A program made the translations under genes and the position numbers. DNA of 64,000 nucleotides from Antedon mediterranea. Its lineage: Eukaryota > Animalia > Echinodermata. The notes under the pieces were generated by a model. It did not search any database. It saw only the letters and a list, made by a program, of their open reading frames with translations, and was not told the DNA's origin. Each line of letters begins with the position of its first letter. Position 1 is the stretch's first letter. The stretch lies in contig NC_092670.1 in assembly GCF_964355755.1 (NCBI RefSeq), forward strand, positions 9,166,201 to 9,230,200, in the 5' to 3' direction. Shown in pieces: positions 1 to 53,800 of this stretch.

Positions 1-678
1 AAAGGTGGAAAACAATAAAAATAATTTCAGATTTTATGTATGCTTTAATGTATTACAAATCGACGTAGAAATACTACACTATTGATGTTTTTATGGAAAA
101 TTGTAAATTGCTGGCATTAAAGTGGGTTTACACCTAATATGGATTAAAGAACATTCTTTAGACTTTCCCTTTTCTTTAACGATTTAATGCTACTGATTAA
201 ATTAAATATTAACAATATTTACAATATTTTTTTCATAAAATATCATACATTACATTTATTATTACCTAGGAAATGAGCTTGACAATATAAAGTAAAATTG
301 ATTGTTTCTAAATATTAGGATAGATTTTTTCCTCTGAGGAATGTAAACTCTTTTTCTCCTATTATCAGAACATCCTAAACCAGGCCTTAATTTGCGTCGA
401 TCTTCATAGAATTTTGCAATAAGCACGAATACATAAAGTTTGTACGCAAACAATGCTTAAATCGTTGTTAAAAAATAATAGGTCTACACAGTGTACAGTA
501 TCCATATAAATATATCAATTCAATTATGAATTAATAATATAATAAGTTTGACACTTTGATAAGCAGCGTCAGAATATATAGAAGATATTGATGTATTGTT
601 TTATGTTTCAAATCGCTGTTGGTTTTGATTGAATAGGCCTAAAATAAAAATAAAATAAAATATATTGTTAGTACTTAC

Positions 679-970
679 CACGTTTAATACGTATGAGTTC
701 TTCACTGAATAACTTGAAGAATGTGGTTTGGGTTTGGCAGATCAACTTCTTATAGAGAATTAATGTTTACTTTGTACGCTTTGTTTATTTTAAAGAGTTT
801 AGTATATTTACTTTCAAATACAGTGATCTTTTATCATTTTTGTGACTTATGTTTGCCGACTAATTCATGTTTTACTGAAAGAGTGGTGATCACAAACTGT
901 TTGTCAGGTCACCTGAAAACTTTCTATGGGAGTGCAGTCCTAAGCTTTTGATGTCGACGCTGGCTTCTTG
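679..970 (-). promoter_or_regulatory. Promoter and non-coding first exon of a third secreted-peptide paralog (coding exons off the left edge)
   Basis: Homologous to 5101-5330 and 12598-12800. TATA-like TATAAG at 754-749, exon ending CGTG|GTAAGT at 679/678, shared TAAAGAGTTT and TGGCTTC motifs. Confidence 0.55.
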
Positions 971-2817
971 GTCAGGAACACGTGCCAAATACTTGCTCTC
1001 TACAATTCACTAATATAAACTCACTGATTTAAATTTTATACATACAAGTACAAAACTGTGTAAATCGGGAAAAATCAAATATGATATATTATTTATGTTA
1101 AATTTGTACCCACTAACAAACTTTTAAGTTTGTAAGTAAAAAATATTTCAACACTATAGTAACAAATCAGCAAGTTATATTGTATTTTAACACTAGTAGA
1201 ATTCCTGTACGCTACAAAGTTGATTTTGAAATCAAGTGTAGGTCAAGTGGATTGACAATGCATATTTGCATATTTCAGGTCAGGTGGGCCATCGTGTAAA
1301 AACTACGCTATAGAATCATTAACCGGTACACTTCGTGTCAACCTTGTTTAAGGGAAGCTTATCCGCCAGACATTATTGCTACGATTGTAAGTAATTATAA
1401 TCATTACGTATATTTTTCATCTAATTATAATGTGACAAACATGTATGTATCGTATTATTTCTATGCTAAACTGATACCGCAGCTCGTCTGTGTAAATTAG
1501 CATTTATACTGTATCATTCATTAAGTATGTTCACCATTGTTGTTGGCTAAGACCTGTACTTCATAGAGAAGATGTGATTGTGTAAAAGACACTTTATCTC
1601 TCTGTTCATCATTCATGATTAGCATTAATATTGTAGTGACAGAACCCCTTTCCCATCCCCTGCAAAATATCATAAATCCGCTGTTTTGCCCATATAACGG
1701 CTTAACAAGTGCCTACATTATATTGAAATTTGCAATAGGCTATAAAGAAAATAAATTCAAACAACGCTTAAACCTAAATACTCTGAATGCCAATTTCAAC
1801 CTATTAAAGTTCATTCATTTAAATATCAATTCGTGCTAATCAATTCTGAACTAAAAGTAAAATAAAAGACATAGGCTACATTGACAATTAATGAAAAGCA
1901 AAATCAAAATAGGAATAGGCCTACTGAATGGTATTATAAAGTGTGGTAGGTAGTTGGAAATTCAGCTTTTTATAGATATTTTTTCCTGGAAATCAATTAG
2001 TGACCACATCGTGTATAACTATGTATAGAAATCCAGTCATATTGCTGTTTGGCAAAAACCGGACTTGGATGTCAGTAAGGTTACAATGGCCTCCCTGTCC
2101 ATGTACAAAGTTGCGGTGAGTTAAGCCGAATCAACAGCACAATGGTAAGTCTGGCTGTATATCAGATTGATTACTGACATTTTAAGTAAGGGGGTCAAAA
2201 TACAATATTGATTGTAATCTTTCAATCTTTTTCAAAGTTTAATTTCTAGTAGACCAGTTTCAAACCTCGGCAAGGTCACGCACCTTCTTGATAAACTATT
2301 TGCCGATGTTGTGTCACCGCCGTGTGAACTCTCGCGAATCAAATAATTGTCTTTTGGGTCCTTTGCATTCAGTCGTGTAATCTTAAGATTAGATAAGATA
2401 GGACAAAATGACAGTCCCGTACCTAGTCGGGATAGAAATCACAAACCTCTCCAAACAGTGGCAAACATAGTTTGCAAGCAAAAGTTCGGCGAAGTTTGCT
2501 ACCTATCCTTATAAACAACGGCCTGACCACAAAGAATGAACAGTTAAACCCATGTTTAAACGAAATGAATTTTATTATATGAAATATAGGCTGTGTAAAT
2601 ATTGGAGTCAATTTCTGCTAAAATTGTGGTATCCGTGACATAAAAGTAAAAAGAAGAAAATCCATTCTAATTTGTGCACAAAACGTAATATTATATTCAA
2701 TTACAAACTACTAATGATCCGATTTGGGATTATATTAAATATATATCTATTATAAATGCTGAAACATTGTTATATAATAATTCTTGTCACAACCAGATTT
2801 ATAGAAGGTATGAGGCA

Positions 2818-3642
2818 TCACTTGCTTACCTGAAAAAAAAACCAAATTTGTCAACTCGTTTAAAATGGGTGTTTTTTATGGGAAAAAACAATTGGTATTT
2901 GTAAAATTGAAACTCACTTTACATAGGTAATTCCCAAGTCCGTAATTTATGCACTGAGCAGCTGCATTACCACATGCACTAACCACGTTGTCACATGGGT
3001 CTGTCATGGAAAAAACCGAGAACATAATGATAATCAACATTTATAAAGAAGCATAAAATCATCGCAAGGCCAAAAGTATATTTGAACAAGCTAGTTTTAA
3101 GAAGAGCTTGCATATTACGTAGGCCTACGTAGAATGACGGATGTGAAATGGAAGGCGTTTGTAAAATAATTTAGTGTGTTTTACTTACTGGAACTTGTTG
3201 AACAGAATGATGTTAACAGACCATTGATAAACATTCCAGCGTAGCAGTATTGCCCTGTTGGGCATGGGTTGCCAACACAATAATCACGCTCTGTGAAACA
3301 AAAAGAGTGACGTATCATGTTTTTTCATCACATTTCCCATTTTCATTCTTACCTCATTTCCCATTTTTATCATAATCAAAATGTTTCCCATTTTCAACAT
3401 TAGGCCTTGGATCATTCTGCATCTTTCGCAAATATAGCTCTTTATCTCTTTATAAACAACTTTATTGATTTACCTTCCAAGCTTTTCCGTACTTTCATTT
3501 CTTGGATTTCATCCAATAGCTCTCGTTTTTCCGCTTCTTCAATGGCATTCACAAGTTCGTCTCTCAAATCAAATGCTGGCTTGCTGAGAGCAACTCCAGC
3601 GCAGAGGACGACACAACACAATACAAAACCAGTTCGAGCCAT
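2818..3642 (-). CDS. Secreted Cys-rich peptide precursor, copy A (121 aa: signal + acidic pro + two 4-Cys EGF-like modules)
   Basis: Coding exons 3642-3474, 3290-3189, 3000-2918, 2829-2818, all GT-AG with consistent phases 1,1,0. Protein: MARTGFVLCCVVLCAGVALS-KPAFDLRDELVNAIEEAEKRELLDEIQEMKVRKSLEER-DYCVGNPCPTGQYCYAGMFINGLLTSFCSTSS-NPCDNVVSACGNAAAQCINYGLGNYLCKVSK*. Confidence 0.8.
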
Positions 3643-4281
3643 AGTGTCCGGTATCTACAAAGAACAAATCTTAACTGGTATAAAATATATTTCAAGATAA
3701 CTGTCTGACAATTAAATTTATACGATATCCCTCTCTTTCTCTTAGTCGAAAAATATTTTCTTGATTTATGATTACTATAATCTACTAATTCTGAGTCTAC
3801 AGAGAACAGTGCTACATTTATAGCATTCAGTTCTATGTAGATTTATTTATGTTGTAGTGAAATCAATTAAGCTGATAATGACCTTGTAAAAGTGATGTAC
3901 AGTAACAATGGAACATTTATTACTGTATATCCTTCACTAGAAAAGAAAAATTGTTTGAAATGATTGATAAAACATCTCGTAACACGACCTATTTCAAATA
4001 CAATCACAACCCTCCTTCCACATACCGTATTAAGCTTAAGTAAAGAAAACTAACAAAGACCCACTGTCAAGTATGTTCAAAGGACAACGTGTGCTTGTTT
4101 GCCAACTAAAGTAATACCTTGCAAACAATTGAATCTGTTCTATTGAACTGGTTTTGATGCCTTTGATCCCTTTTTAGAAATCTTCATAAATATTTCAAAA
4201 ACGTTGTGACTGTTTTAATGATCATAACATAATAGTGTGAATTCAAAGTGTATACGTTTTTCGCTTCCTTAGAAAATGCAA
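3434..4281. repeat. Segmental duplicate of 10474-11236 (signal/pro exon plus upstream intron)
   Basis: Direct alignment by eye; identical over the signal-peptide codons and splice acceptor, and highly similar through the intron. Confidence 0.95.
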
Positions 4282-5100
4282 AGAGAGAGAAACGGATTAC
4301 ATAAAAGTAGTATTTCAACAAGATCCATTTCCCAATTAAAACGATTCAGCAGAGATGCATATACTATTTTAGTTAATCAAACCCACAGCAACAAATCAAA
4401 TCAACCAAACAATTTTCTTCTTATATGACATTATTCTATTTATATTCATAGAACAAAACAAAATTGACCAAAAAAGTTACCAAAAAATCAAGACAACGGT
4501 TTACATTAGATTGACTTAACTAAAAACAATAGCTTCCAACCATTCCATTTTTTCTATACTTTCGATTCTAGAAAATTGTAGTTTACAGTTACGGATAATA
4601 AAATGAACTTTGACAAAGTAAAAAAGAAGTCCATTGAAGTGTTTTACTGTTAAAATAATAAATTACGTTCATTTCCTGAGCTCTCGGTGTAATGTGTTCC
4701 GCTTCGCAAAAAGAAATCGGACTACTATTCGTTGCGCGCGAACAAATTCGCCAAGTGGAAAATATAAATAGTGGCGATAACCACAGGTCAACACATTTTA
4801 GACTAATAATAAGTGATTGTAAAACCAAAATAGTAGGCCCTACTGGGTTTGATCAACTTTAGAGAAGAGTTAAACGATGATGAAGCTCTATAAAAATACA
4901 AATTGTGATGAGATGAATACGGGCTCGTATAGTCACCGTCAGATTATTCTTAGTCAGTACTTTATGAATAATAAAATAATACTAGAAATAAAGCCCTCAA
5001 ATGTTTATTTTAATAAGTTTTAAGAAGATACTTAGATTAAATGGATAATTACAAGTTGATACAATCCAGTTTGTTGATCAAAACAAAAAATAATACTTGC

Positions 5101-5472
5101 CACTTTGAATATATGTATGAGTTCTTTTAACAGGATCACTGTTAAGGTGTGTTTCTGTTAAACCGCTCACCCTTTTAAAGGTTTATTCTGTCACTGTACT
5201 TTACTTTTAAGGTGGTAAAATTTACATAACACAGTGTTTCTAACTTGTTGGTAACTTGTGTTTGCAGACTAATCTGGAATTGAATTTTATTTGTTTGGTT
5301 TATCCCTAGTGGCTTCCTGTTCATTCACTATTCAATATTAAACTGAATGTTTTCTTTCAGTAAAACCAGACAAGCGCCCATTTTCAATCATTTTATTAAC
5401 AAAGGTTATTATTTACATTCCACAAAAGCAGCTTTTAGCTTTCTTATACATTTGTTTAAAAACCTCAAGTTT
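5101..5472 (-). promoter_or_regulatory. Promoter and non-coding first exon of peptide gene copy A (GC-type donor)
   Basis: Homologous to 12598-12990 and 679-970. TTTAAAA about 75 bp upstream of donor GTG|GCAAGT at 5101/5100. The ATG exon has its own acceptor at 3656-3655, so it needs an upstream exon. Confidence 0.6.
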
Positions 5473-5602
5473 GGATCAAAGTGTCAAAACACCAGACACT
5501 TCTGAATAATATACAAAGATGTAGAGATTATTATTATTAGGTGAGATTTTAATGGAAATAGGAGTGATATTTATCACTTTGTTGTTGTTGCTGCTGCCGA
5601 CG

Positions 5603-5809
5603 TTTTTAGTCACGTGGACGCGACTCAATAGTTCACTATGTCGGTCGGTCGGTCTGTCGGTCTGTCTGTCGGTCCGGTATCACTATGCGTTTTATCGCTT
5701 TTCTGTACTTTTTGAACTGTTTTGATGTACAGACAAGTTTTAAAGTACATTACTTTTGAAAGTTCATTTTTTTTCTGAGAGCACGCGACTTATGGCTGTT
5801 GGCCTTGTT
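5603..5809 (+). mobile_element. Non-autonomous Helentron/DINE-1-like element
   Basis: TTTTTAG start, subterminal inverted repeat AGTCACGTG / CACGCGACT, internal (GTCG/GTCT)n microsatellite, CTTGTT end. Confidence 0.5.
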
Positions 5810-5977
5810 ACTTGATCATTTTGATTTAGTAAAAACATTTTCCTCTGGTTTCTTCGATTAGCATTCAGATATAGTTCATTAATTGTAAACCATTAATTCA
5901 TTAACTTAGCTGACGTATCAAGACAGTTTCGTCAAGCTTTCAACTAGATTGTCAGTTGTTTGTTGTGCGATGCCATG

Positions 5978-6095
5978 TTACAACCGCTAATGTAGAAAAC
6001 GCCAGCTAATGTCGAAACAACAACCGTTATTGTAGAATAATCCACCGCTAATGTAGAAACGCCAACCGCTTATGTAGTAACTAGAGAAACGCCAG
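5978..6095. repeat. Degenerate ~20-bp tandem repeat (ACCGCTAATGTAGAA-like)
   Basis: About 6 imperfect units visible. Confidence 0.7.
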
Positions 6096-7057
6096 TGTGT
6101 GTTTTTACGTAGGGTTTTATTTTTCTTGTTGAACAAATATACCTAGGAAGGTCACAATAGTCTTGAACATTCAACAATCGGGTGCATATAATTATACATT
6201 TTCTTTATTATTCAGTTTGGAAGCAAGTATAGGCCTACCAGGTAGATTACAATAAAATAGCGAATTTCTGTGTTGGGTCATTGACTCATGGTTTCCCTTT
6301 TGTGCTATTTGCCGAAAAAATAAGAATTATAATAAATTTCTTTTCATACGTTTTTTTAATTTTCATATTGTATGGTTCACAATTTATACTAAATTGTTTA
6401 CAGTGAATAATTATAACTCATTGTGAAATACTATAGGCCTATATAATATTTTGAGAAACATGTAACATGTAACAGACAGTTGATTAAAATCGGAACGAGC
6501 ATCACAAAAAATAAACATTTTTAAAAATGAAAAAAAAGGTGAAAATATAGAAAATTCAATCAGATCTACTCGTGTAAATTCGAGGAATTTTCATGGATGT
6601 AAATAATCAGGAGTGAGAAAAGGAATTTCGTCGTTCAATGTGCATTAAACAAAGGTTAAGCCTATTTCACTTAATAAACTCGCACACTCTAAATACAGTT
6701 ATCTAATGCACAGCGTCGTACAAAATATTATTCATTACTATTGAAAATAACATAATTAGATATTTATGCTGAACTGAAAGTGTTATCATTTATCTACAAG
6801 TTTTTTTGTGGAGATGTTGAAAAATTATTAGGCCTAGTAGAAGTAGAATTTAATAAAGGGAACACATTCGGGACCCTAAATAGTGGGTTTCGTGCGGGAA
6901 AAAAAATACAAATATACCAAAATGAACATTAATTTAATGAAAACTGTCAAGCCAGAGATAACCATTATGATATTCATGTTTGTATTAATAACGAATATTT
7001 ATAATTATTTGGTTGTTTTTGTGAAGGGAAAACAAATATTATAGGGGTTACGTCAAA

Positions 7058-7240
7058 CAATAAGGTTTATCGCAAATGCCATGATTTCGCGAGAAACGTC
7101 ATTGCACAATGCAAGATCGGAAGGGTTTGGGAGCAATAGCGCCACCGTATAATACAAACTTTATATACTGGTGGTGCCGCTATTGCTCGAAAACCTTTCC
7201 CATTATGCATCGCTCACGCAATTTGCGATAAACCTTATTG
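7058..7240. mobile_element. Foldback MITE
   Basis: Terminal inverted repeat CAATAAGGTTTATCGCAAAT / ATTTGCGATAAACCTTATTG plus inner arms GAGCAATAGCG / CGCTATTGCTC. Confidence 0.75.
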
Positions 7241-7352
7241 GCACACTCAAACCCGATTATAGGGATGTCCAAAAGGAGAGGTTCTACTGTAACTACAACA
7301 CATCTCTCAAACTATTATATCAAATCAAAATAATTATTCTATTATAAGGCAT

Positions 7353-10300
7353 CTAACCGAAGATCTGAAAGCGTGTCGACCGATAGCACCTACGTGGCAC
7401 ATTGGTTGTGTTCGGATCGGATACGATTTTCATTGATGTTCCGGTCTCAAAAGCCTATAAGAAGAATAAATTATTAGGCCCATTAAACGAATTTTAAAAA
7501 CACAACTGTAAACTGTAAATTATACAACATAGGATATATTTAGATTATTAGAATTGCAAATACCTTTAATACGAATTACCTCCGATTATATAAATTATAC
7601 CAGTTATATAAACATGTTCGAAATGCTTCTTCACTTCCATACTCATTAAAAGCGGTATTTTTCTGAAATAAATTATAGATATAATAGGGCCTACTGTTTC
7701 ACAAAAAGTTATTTACATTATAGTAACATTAGTATTTCTATTAATTATTTTTATAACGGAGTTGACAGTACTTTAGAGAATACTGATTTAAGTGTTATTT
7801 CCTTATATAATATACAATTTTATTTATGATTTTAAGAATGAATTGATTATTATTTTGGAGGCTTTTTATATTATTATTTTCATGCTCTTAGGTTGTCTGT
7901 AATACAGACAATCTAACAACAGAACTGAGCTCGACTTGCCAAGATAGGAACTCGTAACAGTCATTTGATATTATGTCCGGCTGCGAAAAATACCACAATA
8001 CTTTAATCTCCGCATCGCGCGGTGTCTGTTAAAGGGCGTGAACTAATCGTATCGGCATCCACAGATAAACCCTTTGATCTCCGGAGCTCAGTCCTATTAG
8101 ATTGCCTTGGTAATATTAATAATACAAAATACATCTTACCCTCTCGTATGAATCTAAGAAAAGAGAAAGAAAACATTTTGATTTTTATTGGTTAATTAAT
8201 TGTTATTTACTAATTTCGTTGGATGGATTTTGATTGATACAACCAATAATACTTCTCGCACCATATAATTTTAAGGCATATTTTGTTTAAATCACGCCAA
8301 TTAATTCATTCAAATGAATTATAGAAACAAGCTCGGACCACCATCTTAAGTTTCGCCCGTATGTAAATGTTTTCACTTATGAAGTAGAAGGAAAAAAGTC
8401 ATAATCTTCAAGATAAAGAACTACTAAAAGTTAAAAAACTAGAGCAAAAATAATTGATAATTATCAATACTCGAGAGTTGGAACCAATTATTATTATTTG
8501 TCAAGAAAACATACCGTACGTAATCTTAAAATACACGTGTACATGACTGACCTGTGTTATATAAACTTTCAAATTAATGAAAGTTATCAAAGTAAATAGC
8601 ACACAGTTTTAGAAGGTTTATTTTTCAGTGTTTCTGAAATATTCCTCCCAACCTAGCAAATTCCGGCCAAATCCGAAGGCTAATTCTAGTTTAGGTTAGT
8701 ATATCAGTTATATCCTTTATATTAGCATAATTACGTTATCTTTTTTGCTTGAACAGCTAAATACAATGTTTGTACGCTGTATTGCTATTTTTAATGTAGT
8801 CTAGATGTATTTGTTGTAATCCAATACTATATACTACGATACAACGCATAATAAGCGTTAATTAATAACGAAGCTCTAACTTTATTAAGTGTCTTATTTG
8901 GTTATCTGGCTGCCTAGGAGACGCGACCGTTATCGAGGGCAGCACACTCAGCCTGGGTGCAATTATTCGTAATGAATCTAGTATTTTTTGTTATTTATAG
9001 ATGAATATTTTTGTTTAAATGTATTTTCTTTTAGTTTTGTTTAGTTGAGGTGAGGAACTCACCATCTGGTCGCTCTTAATAAAAGGAAAAACGCCTAAAT
9101 TTCGAGTATAAAAAGTAAGTTTATACTACATCATTATCACGGTATTCTAAAAATGCCTGGATAGTACAAATTAAACCAGTTATTGGTTACACTAATTATA
9201 CTAATAGCTCACACACTCTTCATAATAAGAGTTGAGTAATAATTATTATTGTTTATTCTAATTACTGTACAGTGAAACAAATCATGACCTGAGCTACAAA
9301 TCAATAAAATAGACCCTTGAGACAATTATGATGTACATTCATTAAATGTTGCGATTACGTTTGTTCCGAACATGATCTGGATGATGACTTAATTTTCCCA
9401 TACTCTGTTTATTACTCGTTCATATTTTTTCAGAAACCTGCTCAAGTTCATGTAGGAGAGGTAGGTGAAAACATTCGACTGTACGTCTAGTCTTCTAAAA
9501 CATAAAGGGAACCGACAATTGAACTAGAAAACAGTTTGCTTTTGTTAAAACAATGAATTTGTTAAGCTTTGTTTTAGACGAAATATTGATATCATTATCT
9601 TAGAAACATTAAGAGAGGCAAAGATCGTCCACAGATTGTGCAGAATTGTAATATTTTGATCATACGATGTAGTCATTAAATTGGTGATTAAACAAGCACA
9701 CACTTATGCGTTTGAATTCATGTAGGCCTACAGCGACAAGGTAAAGGAAACCTGTTTATGATGTTTTTAAAACGTTAAAATTAAAGATTATATAACACAA
9801 ATGTTTACAATAATGTTATTTTAACGTTTTTAAAACCCCATTAAAAACTGATATTTTAGGTTTTTAAAACTCTACAAATTAACGTTTTTTAATACGAAAA
9901 ATAGCGTTTTTAAAACCAAAAACAATACGTCAAAAAACGTTACTTTAACGTTATTTAAATAGCATTATTTCGTTATATATACGTTTTAAATGTGTGCTTT
10001 AAACGTTAAAATAAAACGTTATTGCAACGTTTGCAAAACTCCACAAATTCACGTATTAAAAACGAAATATAACTTTTGTAAACTCAAAAAATATGTTAAA
10101 ATATAGTATTTTAACGTTATTTTATCTAGAAATATTACGCTATAAATACGTTCAAAATTTTTTTTCAAACGTTACAAAACTACGTTATTTCAACGTTTGC
10201 AAAACTCCACAAATTCACGTATTAAAAACAAATATTATAACGTTTTTAAACCAAAAAAATACGTTAAAAATATAGTATTTTAACGTTATTTTATCTATAA

Positions 10301-10682
10301 ATATTACGTTATAAATACGTTCAAAAAACGTTTTAAAACGTTACAAAAATACGTTATTTCAAGGTTCGCAAAACTCCACAAATTCACGTTTTGAAAACGT
10401 TTAATCAAAACGTTTCCAAAACCAAACCAGTACGTTTTTATAACGTTATTTTAACATAAAATTGTTAGCTGGGATAGCACTTTATCTCGTTATAAACAAC
10501 TTTTTTGTTGATTTACCTGGCATGTCTTTCCGTACTTTCATTTCTTTGATTTCAGTAAATAGCTTCCGTACTTTCGCTTCTTCAATGTCATTCAGTTTGT
10601 CTCTCAAATCAAAGGTTGGCTTGCTGAGAGCAACTCCAGCGCAGAGGACGACACAACACAATACAAAACCAGTTCGAGCCAT
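7353..10682 (-). CDS. Secreted peptide precursor, copy B (predicted 97 aa, two microexons, C-terminal Gly)
   Basis: Exons 10682-10517, 9074-9063 (12 nt), 8153-8140 (14 nt), 7454-7353; GT-AG with phases 1,1,0 all consistent. Protein: MARTGFVLCCVVLCAGVALS-KPTFDLRDKLNDIEEAKVRKLFTEIKEMKVRKDMP-ERPD-DSYER-AFETGTSMKIVSDPNTTNVPRRCYRSTRFQIFG*. The first coding exon is secure; downstream exons are inferred from splice signals. Confidence 0.55.
7906..8106. mobile_element. MITE
   Basis: Inverted termini AGACAATCTAACAACAGAACTGAGCTC / GAGCTCAGTCCTATTAGATTGCC. Confidence 0.6.
9763..10473. mobile_element. Non-autonomous DNA-transposon-like element with internal AACGTT-rich ~167-bp tandem repeats
   Basis: About 4 units carrying CAAAACTCCACAAATTCACGT-like cores; sharp right end ...GTTAGCTGGG; left end degenerate. 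Confidence 0.65.
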
Positions 10683-12597
10683 AGTGTCCGGTATCTACAA
10701 AGAACAAATCTTAACTGGTATAAAATATATTTCAAGATAACTGTCTGACAATTAGATTTATACGATATCCCTCTCTTTCTCTTAATCGATAAATGGGTTC
10801 TTTATTTATTACTATAATCTACTAATTCTGAGTCTACAGAGAACAGTGCTACATTTATAGCATTTAGACCCAGTTCTATGTAGATCTATTTATGTTGTAG
10901 TGAAATCAATTAAGCTGATAATTAACCTTGTAAAAGTGATATACGTAAATTCACTTTAAAAAAAAATTGTTTAAAATAATTGATAAAACATCTCGTAACA
11001 CGACTTATTTCAAATACACTGTCAAGTATGTTTAAAGGCCAATGTGTGCTTGTTGTCAACTAAAGTAATACCTTGCAAGCAATTGAATTTGTTTTATTGA
11101 ACTGGTTTTGATGCTTTTGATCCCTTTTTAGAAATCTTCATAAATATTTCAAAAACGTTGTGACTGTTTTAATGATCATAACATAATAGTGTGAATTCAA
11201 AGTGTATACGTTTTTCGCTTCCTTAGAAAATGCAAAATTGCGCAATGTATACGCGATAACAATACCAGAAATAGAAAGATCTGTAAAAATTACATAAAAC
11301 TACATTTTAAATTTTTTTTTTGTGAAAGAAATAAATTTTTTAGGATTATTCAAATATAGCCCCCTTTTGCATGTAAAAGAATAGGAAATTACAAGGTATC
11401 CACCCCCCCCCCCACCCCCCCCCCCCCCCCCAAACGCAAAAAGGCGTGATTTTCAAGAAACTCGTACTCATTGAAAAAAATTTCAAAAAAATATGAAGTA
11501 TGGGGGATGATATTTTTAAATAATAGTTGAAATGTATGAAAAATAGTAATTTTCTGGGTGGGGCTCCACTTTAATGATCATAACATAATAGTGTGAGTTC
11601 AACGTGTATACGTGTTTCGCTTTATTTGGTTACCGTAAAGTAGTATTTCAGCAAGTTTAGATCTACATGTTTGAAGCGAATGCGTAATGATAATTTTATT
11701 TAAATATTCATTCGCCGTTTTTATTTATTAGATTGGTGGAATAAAAACATTGACACACTAAATAGTGCAAATCCAAAAAGAAATCAATTAAAAGAACAAT
11801 AAATGTAGGCCTACTTTTACATACTACTTTAAATACATATTTTTCGCTGGTTAACAATTACAAGTTTTAAAACTATAAAAAAAGAAAAGTAAACAAAGAG
11901 TATCGCGCACTTTCTGACAATCAGAAAGCTAGAGGCATTATTATAAATATAAACCTCTTTTTGTTTTTTTTTTCTCTTGTAAAGGCAGAGACAACTCTTC
12001 TCCAAATACATGTAGGCCTATCATCCTTTTAACTAGTGTATATACAGTCAAATTTAATCAAGTAATGAAGTATTTACACTGAAAGAAAACTAAATATACT
12101 TTTCCAAATTTACCTCATACCAGGCATGAATTCAAGATATAACAAAAGACGGGTACTAACATATTTTTTTAATTCTCTAAAATGGCCTGAAGCATGCGCT
12201 AAAATGATTAGAAATTTATTTTGTACATTTGACATGTTTAAAGCTGGCATACCTCTTACAGAAAATATTTAGTTTCATTGAAAATTGTTTGCTGGTTTCA
12301 AAATTGTGCTGCATGTATTGTATTGTCGTGGACATAAATGATCAGCTTTGCTGGATGGGCTAACCTCGAAATATGGTTAAAAATAAAATCCATACAAATT
12401 CATAAAACCACGCGTACATTACGCTGCGCAACCATGATGTCCATGAAAACCTTATTAGGATATTTTCAGATAAATATTTAAATTCTGGACAAGTTAAAGA
12501 ATATTGTTAACTATGCCAACAAAAACCAAAATTCTGGAAAGAAAGAAAGAATAATCACGAAAAAAAAGTACTGTATACAAAGAAAAGGCCTACTTAC

Positions 12598-12990
12598 CAC
12601 TAACTTTTCACTTAATGAATTTGAAAGTTTGGTTTCTGTTGACCCAGTTCGTCTTCTTTTTAAATGTGTATTCTGCCACTCTCCTCCTGCTTTTAAAGAG
12701 TTTGGTAAAATTTACATAACAGTCTTTCAAAACATCTGATTGTAGATTATTCTGGAATTTCATTTGTCTGATTTATTCCTAGTGGCTTCCTGTCCATTAA
12801 AATGCTGAATTAAATATTATATTATAGTATATTTTTAATTGCCCTACGTGCAAAACCAATGAACGATGTTTTCTTTCAGTAAAACCAGACAAGGGTCCAT
12901 TTCAATCATTTATTAACAAAGGTTATCATTTACATTCCACAAAAGCAACGTTTAGCTTTCCTATAGATTTATTTAAAAACCTCAAGTTTG
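12598..12990 (-). promoter_or_regulatory. Promoter and non-coding first exon of peptide gene copy B
   Basis: Donor GTG|GTAAGT at 12598/12597, TTTAAAAA at about 12664-12657; 12866-12990 is closely similar to 5345-5472. Confidence 0.6.
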
Positions 12991-13574
12991 CTTTATTATT
13001 AATATGAAATAAATAAATATGGCTTTCAACAAATACATTTTCACTAAATAAAACAGATGTCATTGAACAATAAGTGGTTTAATAACGGAAATGGCTAGAA
13101 AGTTAAGGTTTACTGCAATTATAGTGGGGAACCTAATGTTCTAAATACCAATTCCGTGAGATTTTAATGCTCAAGTTGAGTTTTTGGTAGTTTTTGGAAT
13201 CCTTAAGACTAGTAGAATTCATTGCAACTGGGGGATAATTTTTTCCGACCCTATTTTAGCCGCCATCTTTGATTTCAAAATGGCCCCATTTTTTACTCAA
13301 AACTGATAGTAGCTCCTATTTTAAACCACGTACGAACGTAATTTTTTGTGACTTACAATATTATGATAAATCAGTCCAATTGTACAATTTATGATAATAG
13401 CATATGGCAGCCATAATTTGATGATTAAATACATAAATGCATACATTATATACTTTTTTAATGGCGGCCATCTTGGAATCCAATATGGTTGCCATATGCT
13501 ATTATTATAAATTTTACAATTTGGACTGATTTATACAAATATAATATTATAAAACTATATGTATTATACAAACA

Positions 13575-14522: not shown

Positions 14523-34802
<20,280 letters not shown>

Positions 34803-50800: not shown

Positions 50801-53800
50801 TAGGATATGGGTTAGGTTATGGTGTATGATATTTAAAGATACATTAGGAAAAACAGGTAATATTGTTGTATTACCAAATATTCCTATGATACTGGAGAAA
50901 TCTAGATACAGAATCTGGTGCTTTTAAACTTATAACAATTGTTATTTTTTATTTTGATTATAGATAAATTGTTTGGTACGTGCGCACATCGTTCAGCCTC
51001 AGTCTATGCCTACGACCTCGATCCTACAGGGTATATTCAACTAAAAAATGCGATAGAATATTTACTATCTCGAGGGTATGGCTGGCATAATCCTTTTGCC
51101 CAGGTAATACTTGTCATTAGGATTATCCAAATTTCTAGCCATTTCAAGAAAACATGTAAAGAATACTTTCATGGCGTACTGTAGGTACTTCATATTCATG
51201 GCTTCCTTCAGTCGCAAATGAACTGTCATATTCTATTTGAGTATATTTACAACAGACAATTGCCTTTGAATATTACTGACGAAACTACAGAATGCTCATA
51301 GCGGCTCAGCAATAAGGCTGAAATATATGATATAAAATGGTTTAAAGATTTTAAGTTTTGCAAAATATTGAGTTTAAACTAGGATGTTTATACAGTAGAA
51401 GATAAATGTGAAGATATATATCAAATAAAAATTATAATTACTAACTTTTTATAAGTAATAATACTTTTCTTGTTTTCCAGCACTCTTTGAAGGTTGTGTT
51501 AAAACCATACCGACATGAATTAGATTTATACAGTGATAAAAAGCCACCCCTTCTACCAAACGATTCAGATTTTTCATCCGCTGGTATGAACATTATCCTA
51601 AATGATTTGGAAATGTTAGAAACTGCAGAATATGAGAATAATTTAAGAGATAACAGATTAGATGCCTCTTATAACAAACCCCGTCAACAGAAACCCAAAA
51701 AGAAACCACCTCATCTACATAAGTCGAAGACCGATGTAAATAAAATGTCTGATGCTCTTCAAGAGATGTATTATGAAAAATATTTAGAGTATTTAGAGAA
51801 AGTTGCGTTAGAAGAAGAAATAGGTAATATTTACAATGAATTCAGTGTGAACGAGAAGACAGAAGATCAACAATGGCAGATGGATGGCACAGAAGATCAG
51901 GAAGCAGAAGCTGATGAAGCTTGGATGTTTGAAGACATTACTGAAGATGACCAAGGGAATAACTGGATTAAAGAAGATGTGGAAGTGAAGGATGAGGAAA
52001 ATGTTGAAAGTGTCGTTTTTGAGGAAAATGATAAGCAAGATTATGATAGAGAGTCTACCAACCAAAACAGTATTAATGTTCAGAACCTGTTAAATGGTAA
52101 GGTATTTGGTTTACAACTTTGGCACTTTTACAGGGCATTTTAAAGAACGAAGTGCCTTTGATGCAATAAGCTTTGGTTAAAGTTTGAAATAGCATAAAAA
52201 AACAGAATATATATATTTTTTGTTTGCAAACTGAAAGCATAAATCAGACAAAAGTGCTGAAATCTTCAAAGCAACCAATCTTGTGCCTCTCTCAAAGATA
52301 GTGAAGATTCATGAAGATAATGAACAAAGCAAAAACTTGTTTTTGTAGATTGTATTGATATTAAGAAATATAAAGTGACTAGACAAACTTCTTTATGAAT
52401 GTAAAGCTCAGCAAAGATCATAAAGAATATAATCTTCAAAAACAAGTTTTTGTTTTATTCATTATCTTTATGAAATGGCAGTTCTTTGTGGTTATCATGC
52501 TTTTCTCAAGATTAAATTCTGGCTCCAGGATTGTTCTAGTGGCATTTATGGAATAAATGTTTTAATTATTTTACTTTAAAGATCTTTCATTGAAAGATAT
52601 ACAGACGTTGATGAAAAAGTTATACGAATCATTTGCTGATTTTGATCCTACATGGTGGGTGCAGTTGACGGAAGATGAAAAGAGTTTATTGTTAGACCAA
52701 GCTTTGCTAATTCTACTGGATACTTACCCATCACTCACACCAAAACCTATCACAGATGTGGAAATCTTAGAAGATTCTGGTACAGATGGAATAGCAGATT
52801 CAATTGAGTTTACAGAAAATGGAATGATAGTGGATGACCAACAAGAGGAACTATTTGAACCGCAGCTGGAACAACAAGATGCTGGTGAATATGTTGTTCC
52901 TGACAAACAAAGTGAACCGACTGTTTCAATACCTAGGAAAATACATCCAAGACCAACAGGCAAGTAAACAAATATTATTTATATTTTAAACACTATTTAT
53001 TGTTTTTGTTATTTTGGAATAAAAGAAAGATGGAAAAGAATTATAGATAGAAAAGAAGAAAACTCTTGAATTTCTAAAATCAAGGCACCTCTGGTAATTG
53101 TGTACTGCACTGAATATTATAAATATAAAATACCACATTAAAATGGCTATAGAATATAAGACATGCTTTAAAGTGAACACTTTTTTTTGCTGTGGCACCT
53201 GATTTGGTGAACTCAAAATATTCAGGATAGATAGAAAATTAACCATGGAATTTTATTAGGAAAATTAAATGCTGTGAAATAATAGGGGTTGCAAAAATAA
53301 TATGATATCTTAATCAATAGCATTGTTATATAGAAAGTTGTAAGTTATTTGTACAACTTTCTATAAAACAGCACAATTTCAACAGCTTAGTACATAAAAA
53401 ATTACATTTGATGACATAAAACCTGCAACACAATACAATATCGTTAATTAGTACATCATTCGTTATTACGTGCAAATCAGTTTTCTCCCATAAAAAGTAT
53501 CCTTATGAAAATGCAGCCTTTGTTATTCTCTCTGTTTGGCAATAATTTCTGGGAATCCAATTACCATGCGAATGCAGGCTTTCATCTTTGAATATTCTTT
53601 CGAGTGCTATATAAATAAGATACTTGTCTTGCACTAAAAGCATTACCTTGGCAACAGTAACAGTGATTATACAAACTCTTGTTTGACTGTAAATAGATAT
53701 TAAAAGCACATGTGACAACTCCAAGGCTCGGATTAGGAAAATGTATACTTGATAAATGATCCATTGTATTATGTGACTGTGTTTTTAATGTAATTGCAGC

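Follow-up and report, generated by a model that had tools for sequence, protein, structure and literature searches.

Does a locus in which the same signal exon stands ahead of unrelated downstream DNA represent a library of exchangeable secreted peptides, or a small gene family in which one copy has acquired new exons? This question is raised by a stretch of 64,000 nucleotides (nt) from the feather star Antedon mediterranea (contig NC_092670.1, positions 9,166,201 to 9,230,200), referred to here as the window, which contains three related upstream units (U1, U2 and U3), a gene for a cysteine (Cys)-rich peptide (gene A) and a second predicted gene (gene B). The initial annotation interpreted the locus as a rapidly diversifying set of defence, toxin or signalling peptides. 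Gene A is a real, undescribed crinoid gene for a likely secreted peptide, of the kind with a signal, an acidic pro-region and a Cys peptide, and its eight-Cys domain is the conserved part of the precursor with the signal and pro-region (prepro) as the varying part, the reverse of the conotoxin pattern. With moderate confidence the locus is regarded as a small cluster of tandem members of one feather-star gene family, in which gene A is a spliced gene for an eight-Cys precursor and gene B carries a recently copied signal/pro exon whose predicted splice partners are unrelated exons.

Structure and expression of gene A

Exon 2 of gene A, which carries the start codon (ATG 3642), matched one protein at 100% identity, the uncharacterised 121-amino-acid RefSeq protein P0003, for which three isoform accessions each give the same protein, and the spliced model of gene A is identical to it. 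Four of ten listed sequencing runs were mapped, on window positions 500-5600 and with the low-depth pieces of X10 excluded. X5 represents organism A and X9 represents organism B, a close relative, with both judged to be RNA because their contigs carry splice joints (no run is recorded as RNA). All four introns predicted for gene A are removed in these RNA-like contigs, from runs of two studies, with junctions 3290/3474 and 3000/3189 present in contigs of both X5 and X9, junction 2827/2916 in an X5 contig and the joint between exons 1 and 2 in an X9 contig. The read depth over exon 2 was wholly accounted for by gene A contigs (expected 105.5 and 161.6, with the observed values equal). The annotation of two complete genes at the locus thus stands for gene A, whose model and junctions agree with P0003 and the contigs, with gene B being predicted only. 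In organism B the region of the last intron (window 2783-2913) is handled differently, being skipped with 39 other letters in between, and the C-terminal tail may therefore differ between species.

The anatomy of a secreted precursor that had been proposed for gene A was supported by a hydropathy peak of 3.3 within the first 20 residues, by an acidic pro-region (11 D/E against 7 K/R) predicted to be helical and by the Cys modules, with a neutral mature domain (2 basic and 2 acidic residues) containing eight Cys in 63 residues. Comparison of the two modules with each other gave no significant internal homology. Single-sequence structure models had a predicted local distance difference test (pLDDT) of 53 and 69, with a best VIA Z score of 3.7 at a root-mean-square deviation of 3.1 over 53 residues. 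Upon entry to the endoplasmic reticulum the product would lose its signal, cut after residue 20 or so, and the acidic helical pro-segment would be cleaved at a conserved Arg that directly precedes the first Cys module, releasing a neutral 63-residue peptide with four disulfides, built of two exon-encoded four-Cys hairpin modules.

Conservation within the precursor

A HMMER scan of 1.84 billion representatives, in which any relative more than 50% identical to a representative is masked by it so that the family was not counted, returned a single relative, from Anneissia japonica, with the same eight-Cys cargo. This ortholog retains all eight Cys with identical spacing (4-5-13-6-6-6-9), keeping 39 of 61 mature residues compared with 19 of 45 aligned prepro residues (Fisher P=0.03), the latter comprising 8/20 in the signal and 11/25 aligned in the pro-region, where there is a 12-residue gap. 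The pro-region of gene A contains a 36-nt internal repeat (window 3475-3582) corresponding to this gap, and because the two match, the pro-helix of gene A appears to have been lengthened by internal duplication. In the transcript from organism B only 1/190 nt of the Cys exons differs from gene A, against 10/175 in prepro exon 2 (P=0.004) and 26/850 in the 3′ untranslated region (UTR; P=0.04). A second paralog is expressed in both RNA-like runs, with 17/101 differences in exon 3, 13/63 in exon 4 and the same junction, its upstream part failing to align to exon 2 of gene A at 80%; six listed differences hit no Cys and two of them yield the Anneissia residue. The paralog was not found within the window, either by homology or with a profile of gene A plus the ortholog, and may or may not be the gene to which U1 belongs. 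In the DNA run X7 the contig of the paralog exon 3 (window 3189-3290) had a depth of 203, its neighbours being at about 135, which hints weakly that the paralog occupies more than one locus.

The proposal of a fixed prepro region with a library of hypervariable cargoes is contradicted for every verified member, because the ortholog, the near-ortholog and the paralog keep the Cys cargo while the prepro varies. A single mature domain, which the initial annotation had regarded as telling against a library, is common to three of the four members seen, predicted gene B alone fitting the idea of plugged-in cargo, and a prepro more conserved than the mature part holds in form just for the comparison of gene A with predicted gene B. 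No prepro relative with another cargo was recovered in protein searches, in which small genes and those with microexons may lack annotation. The pattern of substitutions indicates that the mature Cys domain is under purifying selection. Since this domain is conserved and neutral, a role as an arms-race toxin or cationic antimicrobial is disfavoured, and a host partner is the most likely target of the peptide. It might serve as a coelomic or epithelial signal, or as a wound-response factor like the KARTESH/CHUPA peptides considered below.

Upstream units, the copied block and predicted gene B

The three homologous units placed initially at 679, 5101 and 12598 were confirmed, all lying on the minus strand and each ending in a splice donor. 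Local alignment scores of 105 (U1-U2), 77 (U1-U3) and 339 (U2-U3) exceeded both the maxima of 300 shuffles per pair (70, 54 and 60, respectively) and the maxima of 54-61 obtained with 224 real control windows. The donor of gene A intron 1 is GC (window 5099-5100), and those of U1 and U3 are GT. Part of U2, described as a promoter, lies within an RNA-like contig, as an X5 contig covers 5111-5479. This contig is 1027 nt long and includes 651 further upstream letters mismatching window 5480-5600, which may stem from a further upstream exon, from read-through or from a structural allele. At U1 there was background read depth only, which was not counted against it as contigs show presence and not absence.

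Genes A and B share a block of about 850 base pairs (bp) in which intron 1 is identical at 512/536 positions (95%), the 5′ UTR at 11/11 and the start of intron 2 at 35/38. The identical signal sequences and alignable pro-regions of the initial annotation were both verified, with 60/60 nt of the signal codons and 87/105 nt of the pro-regions (83%, or 18 changes) identical and a phase-1 GT donor on each exon. Outside the block the 5′ halves of intron 1 are unalignable (score 47 against a control median of 44.5, n=48) and no similarity was detected between the downstream regions of A and B. When the B region was searched for remnants of gene A (exons 3-4, introns, UTR), the scores fell within the spread of 18 controls, and the profile of gene A plus the ortholog, run on the window, recovered the four known exons alone. 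The claim of a shared signal exon ahead of unrelated downstream DNA is therefore upheld by the absence of downstream similarity; identical tandem signal exons can nevertheless arise by recent local copying, and a toxin-type library need not follow. Bordering the copied block in intron 1 of B, a 53-nt direct repeat (11168-11220 and 11570-11622) encloses about 350 nt that include a poly-C tract and is possibly a breakpoint scar.

Within the block the pro-region of B has changed at 18/105 positions compared with 24/536 in the intron (P=2e-5), about four times more. Sixteen of the changes are non-synonymous and two synonymous, the frame is intact through a 3-nt indel, and the net charge of the pro-region is -4 in A and +2 in B. 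Direct phase-1 splicing of this exon to the exon ending in Gly was rejected, none of 210 AG sites yielding a phase-1 reading with one Cys and a Gly end. There are only two G|GTRAG donors between exon 2 of B and U2, each with a strong acceptor 12 or 14 nt upstream, a coincidence seen at 2/2 such donors in B compared with 2/40 elsewhere in the window. The resulting chain of microexons is open and in frame, predicting a B precursor of 97 codons with an RR pair and a terminal Gly, which would suggest a possibly amidated tail. The predicted terminal exon has a GC content of 48% (top 2% of the region), branch-like motifs and the best acceptor. Since this exon is entered in phase 0, by way of two microexons, the cargoes are not the interchangeable phase-1 exons that had been envisaged.

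Gene B has about an even chance of being live. It is tentatively proposed that B is a live young gene formed by export-exon capture, in which the converted signal/pro block would drive secretion of an unrelated, microexon-linked, amidated peptide, the pro-helix having passed from acidic to cationic under selection. In such a scheme the upstream units would have been duplicated long ago (they are about 71% identical), and a later ectopic conversion or local duplication would have set an A-type block of 850 bp behind U3. The pro-helix would then have changed fast, and the gene would now export a 97-amino-acid precursor whose C-terminal part is a short and possibly amidated peptide. Gene B would be one captured-exon event, rather than a demonstrated library.

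A number of observations weigh against this interpretation of the locus. No B protein was present in the collection at 30-97 and 99-2000 amino acids, and no B-type prepro with another cargo among the HMMER representatives. The B chain was chosen post hoc, with 15 other terminal acceptors existing, and a few multi-base events or copying within the 36-nt repeat may inflate the change in the B pro-region, which would weaken the case for selection. In the case of gene A, the dibasic pairs KR 39-40 and RK 52-53 are not retained in Anneissia whereas a lone Arg is, there is no significant fold match (no Foldseek row at E<=0.001), and secretion and cleavage are proposed on hydropathy and analogy.

Copy B could instead be a partial duplicate without function, or an alternative exon that goes unused in a longer, U3-driven isoform of gene A, with the microexon chain a chance arrangement or dead remnant in an ordinary cluster of small paralogs. 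This explanation, which appears less likely, would account for the lack of protein annotation for B and for the homology stopping at a repeat insertion, 40 nt inside intron 2, and alternative first exons could explain why three RefSeq isoforms of gene A give one protein. A dead exon, however, would be expected to change at the intron rate of 4.5%, and the pro-region differs by 17% with its frame intact and 0/60 changes in the signal; the coincidence of splice signals and the features of the terminal exon (top-ranking acceptor, branch motifs, GC like that of coding sequence) are likewise at odds with a dead copy. In favour of a duplicate, orphan signal exons are known in frog peptide clusters, as far as described in the available part of one account (PMC13128954). 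Much less probable still is a diversifying defence or toxin library with a fixed promoter-signal-pro module serving many phase-1 cargo exons unrelated to one another, for although the identical signal exons ahead of unrelated DNA, the three sister upstream units and language-model neighbours among toxin-like precursors (at 0.75-0.84, a level reached by a third of shuffled proteins) would be in keeping with it, the common cargo and differing prepro of ortholog and paralog, the lone relative in the protein scan with that same cargo, the phase-0 last exon of B and the neutral mature domain under purifying selection all speak against it.

The peptide cluster lies on the minus strand (Table 1), just below a gene ending in a bromodomain (Pfam). 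The minus-strand exons of this neighbour, at window 14523-34829 directly upstream of the cluster, provide a synteny anchor, and it is presumably the KAT2/GCN5-PCAF histone acetyltransferase gene. On the plus strand two long acidic open frames of 232 and 133 codons (window 51445-52967) belong to a further putative gene. Inverted-repeat elements at window 7037-7261, 13358-13542, 17228-20004 and 33604-34181 are probably miniature transposons.

Table 1. Positions of the features of the peptide cluster within the window.
Feature	Position	Strand	Description	Basis or remark
U1	669..866	-	Upstream/first-exon homology block, GT donor at 678	Rest of gene off the left end of the window
Gene A exon 5	1918..2829	-	Last 3 codons, stop, 3′ UTR	X5/X9 contigs, splice sites
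Gene A exon 4	2918..3000	-	Second four-Cys module C-6-C-6-C-9-C, phase 1 in, phase 0 out	Contigs, ortholog
Gene A exon 3	3189..3290	-	First four-Cys module C-4-C-5-C-13-C, phase 1-1, conserved Arg before module	Contigs, ortholog
Gene A exon 2	3474..3654	-	12-nt 5′ UTR, 20-codon signal peptide (ATG 3642), acidic helical pro-region	RNA-like contigs, hydropathy, structure model
U2	5091..5473	-	Non-coding exon 1 of gene A and upstream block	GC donor; exon 1 extends from 5163 or beyond to 5101
Predicted B terminal coding exon	7353..7454	-	33 codons, phase 0; one Cys after RR pair, Gly end	Best acceptor of 16 candidates
Predicted B microexon	8140..8153	-	14 nt, phase 1 in, phase 0 out	Splice-site prediction
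Predicted B microexon	9063..9074	-	12 nt, phase 1-1	Splice-site prediction
Tandem repeat in B intron 2	9866..10398		169-bp repeat, partly palindromic	Begins where A/B homology stops
Recently copied block	10474..11236	-	3′ part of intron 1, exon 2 (10694-10517; ATG 10682), 40 nt of intron 2	Homologous to 3434-4282
U3	12591..12990	-	Upstream/first-exon block, GT donor at 12597	71% identical to U2

Comparison with known secreted peptides

Repeats of the epidermal growth factor (EGF) type typically start with D-x-C-x-x-N-P-C, end with C-x-N-x-G-x-x-x-Y-x-C and are encoded by a phase 1-1 module exon. The modules of gene A share the start and end motifs and the phase 1-1 exon, but have four Cys instead of six, and are taken to be probably truncated EGF-type modules. 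The initial description of a double mini-EGF is therefore apt as regards motif resemblance and fails on the four Cys per module and the lack of a Pfam match. Weak EGF-containing rows topped the Foldseek list (E 0.67-3), and searches of Pfam, PDB sequences, Foldseek, VIA-align, ESM Atlas and Rfam gave no assignment for gene A. Literature searches by accession and motif found no paper, and topic searches no description of the gene A family. The gene encodes a crinoid-restricted, disulfide-rich peptide conserved between two feather-star genera, a candidate ligand and, within a class of which few members are characterised, a new small scaffold.

Conotoxins are small secreted prepro-peptides in which the Cys frame is fixed, the prepro is conserved and the mature part is hypervariable and usually cationic. 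The mussel MgCRP-I peptides, as covered in the available part of their description, follow the same plan and are lineage-restricted (PMC4558851). In the feather star this relationship is reversed and the mature peptide is neutral.

The closest known precursors are those of KARTESH (KASH1/2) and CHUPA in Asterias rubens, and gene A is, by analogy, akin to them, with membership unsupported by sequence. In the available portion of that study these precursors share with gene A a signal, an acidic region and a small Cys-rich mature peptide of four-Cys units, and are echinoderm-restricted, of unknown function and injury-responsive in the sea star, with disulfides I-III and II-IV (DDH fold; PMC11891777). 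Gene A differs in having two tandem four-Cys modules in 63 residues rather than a single four-Cys peptide of 26-48 residues, and its candidate cleavage site is a lone conserved Arg rather than a dibasic site (PMC11891777). A search of PDB sequences with gene A returned none of the solved KASH2 chains at E<=10. Predicted crinoid neuropeptide precursors have a signal peptide, basic cleavage sites and a C-terminal Gly, as in predicted gene B, and one of them, PCNP18, has eight Cys (PMC9793003). Gene A does not belong to this predicted set: PCNP18 was rejected as a relative, its sequence being different, and 0/5 motifs were found in seven supplement files (PMC9793003).

The genes for ranid frog skin peptides provide the nearest parallel in architecture, having, in the available part of the account, a non-coding first exon, a separate conserved signal exon, clustered loci and possible homogenisation by gene conversion (PMC13128954). 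Unlike the frog genes, the verified feather-star members keep one cargo, the sole copy with a new cargo being the microexon-joined predicted gene B, and the pro-region sits on the signal exon, where it is the fast-changing part (PMC13128954). The "export exon" hypothesis for frogs involves a shuffling step that the same source describes as yet undemonstrated (PMC13128954). If gene B is expressed, the locus shows a secretion exon handed to a new cargo, a rare snapshot of the birth of a secreted peptide with donor, recipient and breakpoints adjoining, and B would then be a directly testable case of the shuffling proposed, in the part of that account available, for frog skin peptides (PMC13128954).

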